From a virus (lineage: Duplodnaviria; Heunggongvirae; Uroviricota; Caudoviricetes), in IMG/VR virus record IMGVR_UViG_2695420817_000020: a stretch of DNA of 27,945 bases, one strand, 5' to 3'. Made by a program: the position numbers and the translations under genes. Under the pieces are notes generated by a model that made no database searches, was not told the origin of the DNA, and saw nothing but the letters and a program-made list of their open reading frames with translations. Each line of letters begins with the position of its first letter. Positions within the stretch are counted from its first letter, which is position 1. This document shows, in pieces, positions 3,743-4,400 of this stretch.

Positions 3743-4009
3743 TAGCGATAATTTTACTCATCATCCTTCACATCAGGCCCTGTAGACAGAGTGGTGATTA
3801 CTTCTGGAGTGGATTCAGATTAAACATCTCATTGCTAATGTTTGAGGTTAAGCATCTGGCGCGCGGTAAGTGGTTGCGTTGAAATAAGAGCCAGTCCATT
3901 ACAAATTTCATCAAGCGTCATTGGTAAGGGTGATAATTATGAGATACCTCTTCACTAAGAGTAATCTTAAGGGTAATGTGTAACCTCACTTTTTAATACG
4001 GAGGTTGTA

Positions 4010-4234
4010 ATGTTAGAGAATTATTTCCCTTCAGGAATAGGTGCTCAGCCTGTAACTCAAGCTCAAAAACAGAGGGTTATAGCTGTTCAAGCTGCCCTTG
4101 AATTAGTTAAGGCCTCACTTTCTTCTGCAGGTGGTCAGGCTACAAGTGCAAAATTTGAACAGGAATTAAAAGCAGCTATTGGCTTAATTGAACCATTAGC
4201 CGATGCCATTCAGAAAGCAATCAGCAAAGAATAA
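4010..4234 (+). CDS. Hypothetical 74-aa helical protein (moron candidate), no signal peptide
   Basis: RBS GGAGG 6 nt upstream. Flanked by A+T-rich non-coding DNA with a strong terminator downstream. No recognisable domain. Confidence 0.5.
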   Translation: MLENYFPSGIGAQPVTQAQKQRVIAVQAALELVKASLSSAGGQATSAKFEQELKAAIGLIEPLADAIQKAISKE

Positions 4235-4340
4235 ATAAACCACCTGCATTTTGTTTTATTTCCCAACTAACGGGTGTAATAATCTTAATGTTTCCCGTGG
4301 ATAGATAAGACAATAAGTATTCACCTTCAAGATATAAACG

Positions 4341-4365
4341 AGCCTCGCTAATGCGAGGCTTTTTT
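4341..4365 (+). terminator. Rho-independent terminator
   Basis: AGCCTCGC - TAAT - GCGAGGCT stem-loop followed by TTTTTT. Confidence 0.6.
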
Positions 4366-4400
4366 ACGCATTGTAAGCGTGCACCAAAGAGGGGATATAA

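Follow-up and report, generated by a model that had tools for sequence, protein, structure and literature searches.

Morons were defined for the lambdoid phages HK97 and HK022, and include bor and lom of lambda. The locus described here lies in the late region of an Escherichia coli lambdoid prophage (the window, by which we mean the whole stretch of 27,945 nucleotides that was analysed). It resembles the morons in three respects: it consists of an extra gene, of atypical composition, between genes that are adjacent in related phages; the relatives of this gene, which encodes a protein of 74 amino acids, are flanked by a promoter and an intrinsic terminator of their own; and it is located inside the late operon, where it is read through by antiterminated polymerase. 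It differs from them in that the 74-aa protein is unrelated to any described moron product, in that the promoter of the window copy is only a candidate, and in that many of the relatives, which together make up the family PHROG 5901, use a putative sigma-32 promoter. To our knowledge a sigma-32 promoter has not been described for morons, and a search of the literature for sigma-32 morons found nothing relevant.

Several other described systems share individual features with the locus. Lambda CIII is a small phage protein that acts on the host heat-shock circuit. Together with the T4-like protein Rki (listed under PMC3486835), it belongs to the small phage proteins that bind host proteostasis factors, a mechanism of the kind put forward below; in sequence these proteins are unrelated to PHROG 5901, and the link to them is drawn from promoter type only. 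Among promoters, the closest counterpart is dnaK P1, CTTGAAG-N13-CCCCATTTA, with a -35 consensus of CTTGAA (PMC10216364). The relatives' CTTGAAA-N13/14-CCCCATnT, present among them as CTTGAAA-N13-CCCCATTT, shares the boxes, spacing and architecture of dnaK P1 and keeps a fixed distance from the start codon; the window copy carries CTTCACT-N17-TAATGT instead, which does not fit the sigma-32 consensus. Leaders that occlude the Shine-Dalgarno sequence, RNA thermometers among them, share with the window copy a conserved helix that pairs the ribosome site with an upstream anti-Shine-Dalgarno arm; unlike RNA thermometers, the helix of the window copy is predicted to remain closed from 20 to 50 °C and is without ROSE or fourU features. 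The Acb2/Tad1 hairpin-domain sponges (PF24729), finally, are small, helical proteins of phages too, and their genes share this slot, in some cases directly next to the family gene. A relation between them and the 74-aa protein was considered and rejected, the protein having no Pfam match and an hhalign probability of 0.3%.

The late genes of the prophage are ordered as a Q-type antiterminator, two holins, a GH19 endolysin, Rz with an embedded Rz1 (3281-3742), an HNH endonuclease (4401-4751), a P27-type small terminase, the large terminase and the portal. Between Rz and the HNH gene, G+C content falls to 0.38-0.41 (3800-4400) as compared with 0.52-0.59 in the flanks, so that the A+T-rich island reported in the earlier note is located where it had been placed, and its composition is unlike that of the surrounding genome. 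E. coli strain 104 has an identical, annotated region, in which a 74-aa ORF (WP_000892817) and a 50-aa ORF (WP_032146275) are both recorded as 'hypothetical protein'. Among 5426 complete E. coli genomes, the whole 658-bp island is present in 38, isolated from chickens, dogs, horses, cattle and humans; all of these copies are at least 99% identical, and the 74-aa ORF is intact in every one of the 38. In sibling E. coli prophages whose Rz and HNH/terminase genes are the same, a gene of the 74-aa family is lacking and the slot is taken by different cargo: a 229-aa protein, an unrelated 74-aa protein, DUF6979 with a 67-aa membrane protein, or a reverse-strand gene. In the Rz-HNH slot of these siblings (L176-L179), the 229-aa protein has an N-terminal membrane segment and the reverse-strand product is 131 aa long; all of these products are uncharacterised.

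The slot ends in a predicted intrinsic terminator on the plus strand (4341-4365), which consists of AGCCTCGC (4341-4348), the loop TAAT, GCGAGGCT (4353-4360) and six T (4360-4365), and has a folding energy of -16.7 kcal/mol, in agreement with the 8-bp stem and T6 originally read from the letters. A terminator scan listed the hairpin (4341-4360) on the minus strand only; the plus-strand terminator is clear by sequence and by folding. The same hairpin also precedes the HNH gene in two of the siblings that have different cargo (L176 and L178), and in phage HK620 it is found directly after CATTACAAAT. By this comparison the putative terminator is a part of the slot and not of the cassette, and because it is common to siblings with other cargo and directly follows CATTACAAAT in HK620, the cassette appears to have been inserted between the post-Rz segment and the slot terminator. 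Absence from siblings that share the Rz and HNH/terminase genes, atypical composition, a terminator on the 3' side and a promoter-gene-terminator unit that recurs across the family all uphold the interpretation of the gene as a moron, which had been offered from the letters of the window; very probably, then, the island is a horizontally acquired cargo cassette in a variable slot between the lysis genes and HNH/terminase, and its gene is real.

Upstream of the cassette, the post-Rz segment (3743-3906, plus strand) is resident backbone common to P22-like and other lambdoid phages, not cargo. It is about 90% identical to the post-Rz DNA of Sf6, HK620, CUS-3, epsilon34 and other P22-like phages, and is present in 1847 of the 5426 complete E. 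coli genomes (about a third), only 38 of which have the cassette. The earlier note had described this side of the gene as about 270 bp of A+T-rich non-coding DNA; 267 nt are indeed present between Rz and the gene, but they comprise the conserved post-Rz segment, with its annotated 50-aa ORF, followed by the leader of the cassette, and the post-Rz part, at 0.445 for 3701-3900, is not notably rich in A+T. The 50-aa ORF (3730-3882, plus strand; phrog_11822, gene 65 of Sf6) is of doubtful protein-coding status: in low-power tests it has no third-codon-position bias (0.022/0.009/0.020) and a synonymous fraction of 0.31 as compared with 0.23 expected at random, and two variants contain an in-frame stop. 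Across 83 distinct variants collected by a 19-mer scan, mean pairwise identity is 97.1% in 3743-3906 versus 89.6% in the adjacent tail of Rz, and on this low-power test the segment appears either to be under selection at the nucleotide level or to have spread recently. Possible roles are those of a non-coding element or of a linker for recombination.

Homology to the P22-like phages breaks at 3906, inside the left arm of what appears to be a degenerate remnant of a hairpin (3898-3937, plus strand; CATTACAAAT ... TGATAAT). In relatives, a hairpin of 36-38 nt is found directly before the leader, composed of CAUUACAR, a 9-10-bp stem, a 3-4-nt loop and YGAUAAUG, with an outer stem of 5 bp and a 2x2 internal loop. 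When 25 distinct sequences were selected by their flanks only, 96% of cells proved to be paired and compensatory changes were seen at 8 of the 15 pairs, a result that 0 of 500 shuffles reach. The window remnant scores 7.4 bits (E 9.3) with covariance model R1, whereas intact copies in relatives score 40-57 bits; the boundary-hairpin covariance model has 95 matches at E<=1 in 96 loci, all of them on the late-transcript strand except three weak reverse-strand echoes. There are often several boundary hairpins per genome, and they start 2-3 nt past the stop codons of accessory genes. In locus coordinates, intact copies are located at 2655-2690 and 3319-3358 in Sf6 (L002), at 3596-3631 and 3849-3885 in HK620 (L003), and at 1984, 2501, 3537, 3574 and 3886 in L090. 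An independent pattern scan found the hairpin in at least 120 viral contigs, and 77 of the 79 distinct interiors in this set form one hairpin, compared with 23 of 395 shuffled interiors. Rfam has no entry for the hairpin, whose shape is reminiscent of the RNase III sites found between the cistrons of T7. The anatomy of the slot (post-Rz segment, boundary hairpin and shared end terminator) should help to locate cargo and counter-defence genes in lambdoid prophages. As an observation in its own right, a strand-specific, strongly covarying hairpin recurs as a punctuation mark among the accessory genes that lambdoid and P22-like phages have between lysis and terminase.

The 74-aa gene (4010-4234, plus strand, with its stop codon at 4232-4234) has its ribosome-binding site, GGAGG, at 4000-4004, separated from the ATG by 5 nt, and its product has no hydrophobic stretch; the ORF and its strong ribosome-binding site were correctly placed at the outset. 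The homology search and structure prediction that the earlier note had proposed as checks were both run. The protein matches PHROG 5901 over its full length, with residues 1-74 aligned to all 70 positions (1-70) of the profile at E 8.1e-29. The homologues returned by a word-indexed search numbered 13 and came from Escherichia, Pantoea, Klebsiella, Dickeya and Pectobacterium, and an exhaustive profile search found 132 representative clusters of relatives (clustered at 50% identity) of 60-80 residues; longer proteins among the profile matches (P0140 and others) were rejected as mis-called starts or spurious repeats. Invariant or near-invariant positions comprise an N-terminal MLxxY, then RLxAVQAALEIxKAS, a variable Ser/Ala/Gly loop, and LADAIQxAL. 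Comparison with the 89%-identical relative L027 gives a dN/dS of 0.15. The ORF is neither poorly conserved nor disrupted in relatives, as the 38 intact copies, this dN/dS value and the 132 clusters attest, and the gene is real and under purifying selection.

When AlphaFold was given an alignment of 88 sequences, it returned a model with a pLDDT of 85.6 and a pTM of 0.71, in which helices span residues 17-38 and 46-72 and the N-terminal segment is ordered; an alignment of just 11 sequences gave a pLDDT of 66.5. The protein is thus confidently modelled as a two-helix hairpin, consistent with the helical character anticipated from its sequence. No model in Pfam, NCBIfam or PADLOC matches it, sequence, profile and fold searches found no Pfam, PDB or fold relative and no link to a partner, and a literature search on the accession found nothing relevant. 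The best sequence-profile match in the PDB, the bHLH domain of MyoD (E 0.23), was taken as chance. The protein is a putatively cytoplasmic member of PHROG 5901, an uncharacterised family restricted to the Enterobacterales.

To place the family in its genomic contexts, we fetched 160 loci that encode relatives, 154 of them non-redundant. Phage DNA accounts for 86 of the 154, with lysis genes upstream in 83, terminase/HNH genes downstream in 68 and both in 65, and this placement holds across P27/HK97-type, Terminase_2/Terminase_6 and other packaging modules. The statement that the gene is not part of any conserved phage module is therefore only half true. The other 68 loci (~44%) are without phage markers within 4 kb and belong mostly to Serratia, Kluyvera and Scandinavium chromosomes, where the neighbours are housekeeping genes that encode GFA, pentapeptide-repeat, carbonic anhydrase, GNAT and DUF3313 proteins and synteny extends across species of Serratia, Kluyvera and Scandinavium. 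The 'chromosomal' copies of Kluyvera adjoin a DUF1398 gene; DUF1398 is a family also found in cryptic-prophage slots, and so some of the Kluyvera copies may be old phage remnants.

Transcription signals recur throughout the family. An intrinsic terminator is predicted within 160 nt after the stop codon at 124 of 152 loci (82%), as opposed to 27 of 152 control windows, and its T tract starts at a median of 39 nt past the stop. The sigma-32 consensus CTTGAAA-N13/14-CCCCATnT, with no more than 2 mismatches in 14 positions, is found in 48 of 155 upstream regions versus 2 of 3100 shuffles, and the start of the box is always 66-78 nt before the ATG. Copies of the sigma-32 type are mostly in phage contigs, and the chromosomal copies of the Serratia fonticola group are perfect matches. 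The possibility that the box is a generic trait of cassettes headed by a boundary hairpin was rejected, as it is present in 0 of 113 contexts after independently sampled hairpins; the predicted box is specific to PHROG 5901 and not general in this phage region. Comparison of the loci shows that family members are normally self-contained, with a predicted terminator of their own, and that about a third of them have a putative promoter of the sigma-32 consensus type, on which the transcription of these relatives would depend. A sigma-S-type promoter was suspected in the Kluyvera copies and dropped, the spacer there being 20-21 nt. In relatives of the sigma-32 type (L137 and L090, for example), a stem-loop is also found downstream of the -10 box, about 40-15 nt before the ATG. 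By eye, its sequence varies and its pairing is kept, as in CCCACC-attct-GGTGGG and CTGCC-atttc-GGTAG; it is near the expected 5' end of the mRNA and may be a 5' stabiliser.

The window copy has different control signals. Its leader (3907-4009) is of a type common to about 30 loci and is kept among relatives whose proteins are only ~50% identical. No sigma-32 box is detected in the window copy at up to 3 mismatches to the consensus, and a scan of the window with the sigma-70 consensus found no promoter. The leader contains a candidate weak promoter of the sigma-70 type (3951-3979, plus strand), with TTCACT (3951-3956), a 17-nt spacer and TAATGT (3974-3979), and the T-A-n-T-n-T of the last element is invariant in 22 diverged leaders. 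Immediately downstream, a predicted leader helix covers the GGAGG (3982-4006, plus strand) through pairing of AACCTC (3982-3987) with GAGGTT (4001-4006), at an energy of -6.6 kcal/mol. Across 22 distinct leaders, 93% of cells in the helix are paired, and the changes are mostly C-to-U opposite G, a signature of RNA pairing. The predicted unpaired probability of the ribosome site is 0.09-0.13 from 20 to 50 °C. An RNA thermometer was therefore considered and rejected: the ribosome site is paired in the helix, yet the helix is not predicted to melt within this range, and heat control of translation is not supported. The promoter and helix readings of the leader conflict, in that a transcript initiated with TAATGT as its -10 box would start at ~3986, 7 nt further on, and would cut the conserved anti-Shine-Dalgarno arm; the leader region may therefore act mainly in transcripts that start further upstream. 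By its leader, the window copy is a regulatory variant of the family, with no recognisable sigma-32 box and with a conserved helix that is predicted to occlude the ribosome site.

The best overall explanation, which we hold to be on balance probable, is that the island is a moron cassette encoding a stress-linked two-helix protein, of which the window copy is a regulatory variant. The part of this explanation that makes the protein a stress-linked modulator of the host is more tentative, and is put forward as a possibility. The protein would serve the lysogen or the host cell when under stress, proteotoxic or otherwise, and not virion production; its conservation, its retention outside phages and the core heat-shock type of its relatives' promoter point to a role in the stressed cell. 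It most likely binds a host protein, probably as a small helical-bundle oligomer, since protein binding is the most plausible mode of action for an Ala-rich helical hairpin of 74 residues that lacks catalytic features. The window copy would be transcribed either from the weak sigma-70-like promoter at 3951-3979 or by read-through of the antiterminated late transcript, and the leader helix would throttle its translation. In a bolder form, which we consider rather unlikely as a whole, the family would be an unrecognised class of sigma-32-controlled small proteins of the heat-shock circuit, spread by prophages and repeatedly domesticated by Enterobacterales chromosomes, that binds a chaperone, a protease or a regulator of sigma-32, and the window copy would have been re-wired from transcriptional to translational control. 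If true, the protein would couple proteotoxic stress of the host to lysogen fitness or prophage induction. Taken by itself, the window copy is one more uncharacterised cargo gene of a prophage, and its value comes from its relatives: a consensus heat-shock promoter, carriage by temperate phages and retention in several genera lead to the testable hypothesis that this cargo is plugged into host stress responses.

The main rival explanation derives from the surroundings of the family. The slot between the lysis genes and terminase is a hotspot of counter-defence genes and other cargo. An Acb2/Tad1-hairpin gene (Pfam E 9e-18) is present in 9 loci and is directly upstream of the family gene in 6 non-redundant loci; such genes, which are anti-CBASS/Thoeris sponges by Pfam name, are located at 5648-5884 in L005, 1133-1432 in L026, 3655-3894 in L031, 3574-3879 in L082 and 3571-3873 in L094, and a gene with an Apyc1 domain is found in the Dickeya locus L011. 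A protein that is small, helical and, judging from its model, probably oligomeric, encoded in a variable cargo slot beside such genes, might inhibit or sponge a component of an anti-phage system, as other cargo of the slot does. We consider this unlikely: the protein has no similarity to Acb2/Tad1 and no match in PADLOC, and most of the 68 loci without phage markers are chromosomal, with the gene kept across the species of whole genera. We also know of no counter-defence gene that uses a heat-shock promoter.

A position in the late operon raises a second alternative, namely that the gene is an accessory of the lytic cycle that has no promoter of its own, is expressed only from the Q-antiterminated late transcript, has its translation set by the leader helix, and tunes the timing of lysis or packaging. 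In phage contexts the family gene is always downstream (3') of the lysis genes and on the same strand, there is no canonical promoter in the window, and the G-U-tolerant pairing of the leader suggests that the sequence ahead of the candidate start functions as RNA, and hence is transcribed from further upstream. The existence of siblings with identical lysis and packaging genes and no 74-aa gene, of relatives with putative sigma-32 promoters and terminators of their own, and of family copies outside phages makes such a role distinctly unlikely.

The moron cassette preferred here has evidently been modified on its 3' side. In the alignment with L027, a predicted terminator of this relative (AAGCCGCCttcgGGCGGTTTTTTT) is located at the place of 4238-4261 in the window, with AAGCCGCC-ttcg-GGCGGTTTTTTT in L027 corresponding to AACCACC-tgca-TTTTGTTTTATTT in the window. 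The latter thus has the appearance of a decayed native terminator of the cassette (plus strand) that has kept the left arm AACCACC and the T tract but not the right arm, and transcription of the window copy must end at the slot terminator. The gap of 106 nt between the stop codon and the slot terminator is best explained as the putative decayed terminator plus a spacer in the 3' UTR (4262-4340, plus strand), which contains a predicted imperfect hairpin and occurs only together with the cassette. The earlier note had proposed that this gap of about 100 bp could hold a small RNA, a proposal that we abandon, as the decayed terminator explains the length of the gap, the segment is never found without the ORF, and no Rfam family reaches its threshold on the 3' region, the best being the Leu leader with 27 bits compared with a gathering score of 50.

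Decay of the native terminator, a degenerate boundary hairpin and the lack of a sigma-32 box would also be expected if the cassette were being lost from the window lineage and had no current function; with an intact ORF whose copies in 38 genomes, from varied hosts, are at least 99% identical, a dN/dS indicative of constraint, and conservation of both the strong ribosome site and the leader, we judge this to be very improbable. A non-coding RNA (4235-4340 plus the terminator) as the functional product, with the ORF incidental, is scarcely credible, for although the 3' region, taken together with the terminator, has a better fold than shuffled sequences (z -4.65, a score largely due to the terminator) and has the general shape of small RNAs derived from 3' UTRs, it has neither an Rfam assignment nor an existence apart from the ORF, which is itself under protein-level selection, and only ~39 nt separate stop and terminator in relatives, the extra length in the window being the decayed terminator.

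The island is found twice in the assembly of E. coli CX04, once in the chromosome and once in a separate record of 37,667 bp (NZ_CP081716.1), which suggests that the prophage of this strain also exists as an excised circular genome and hence is active.
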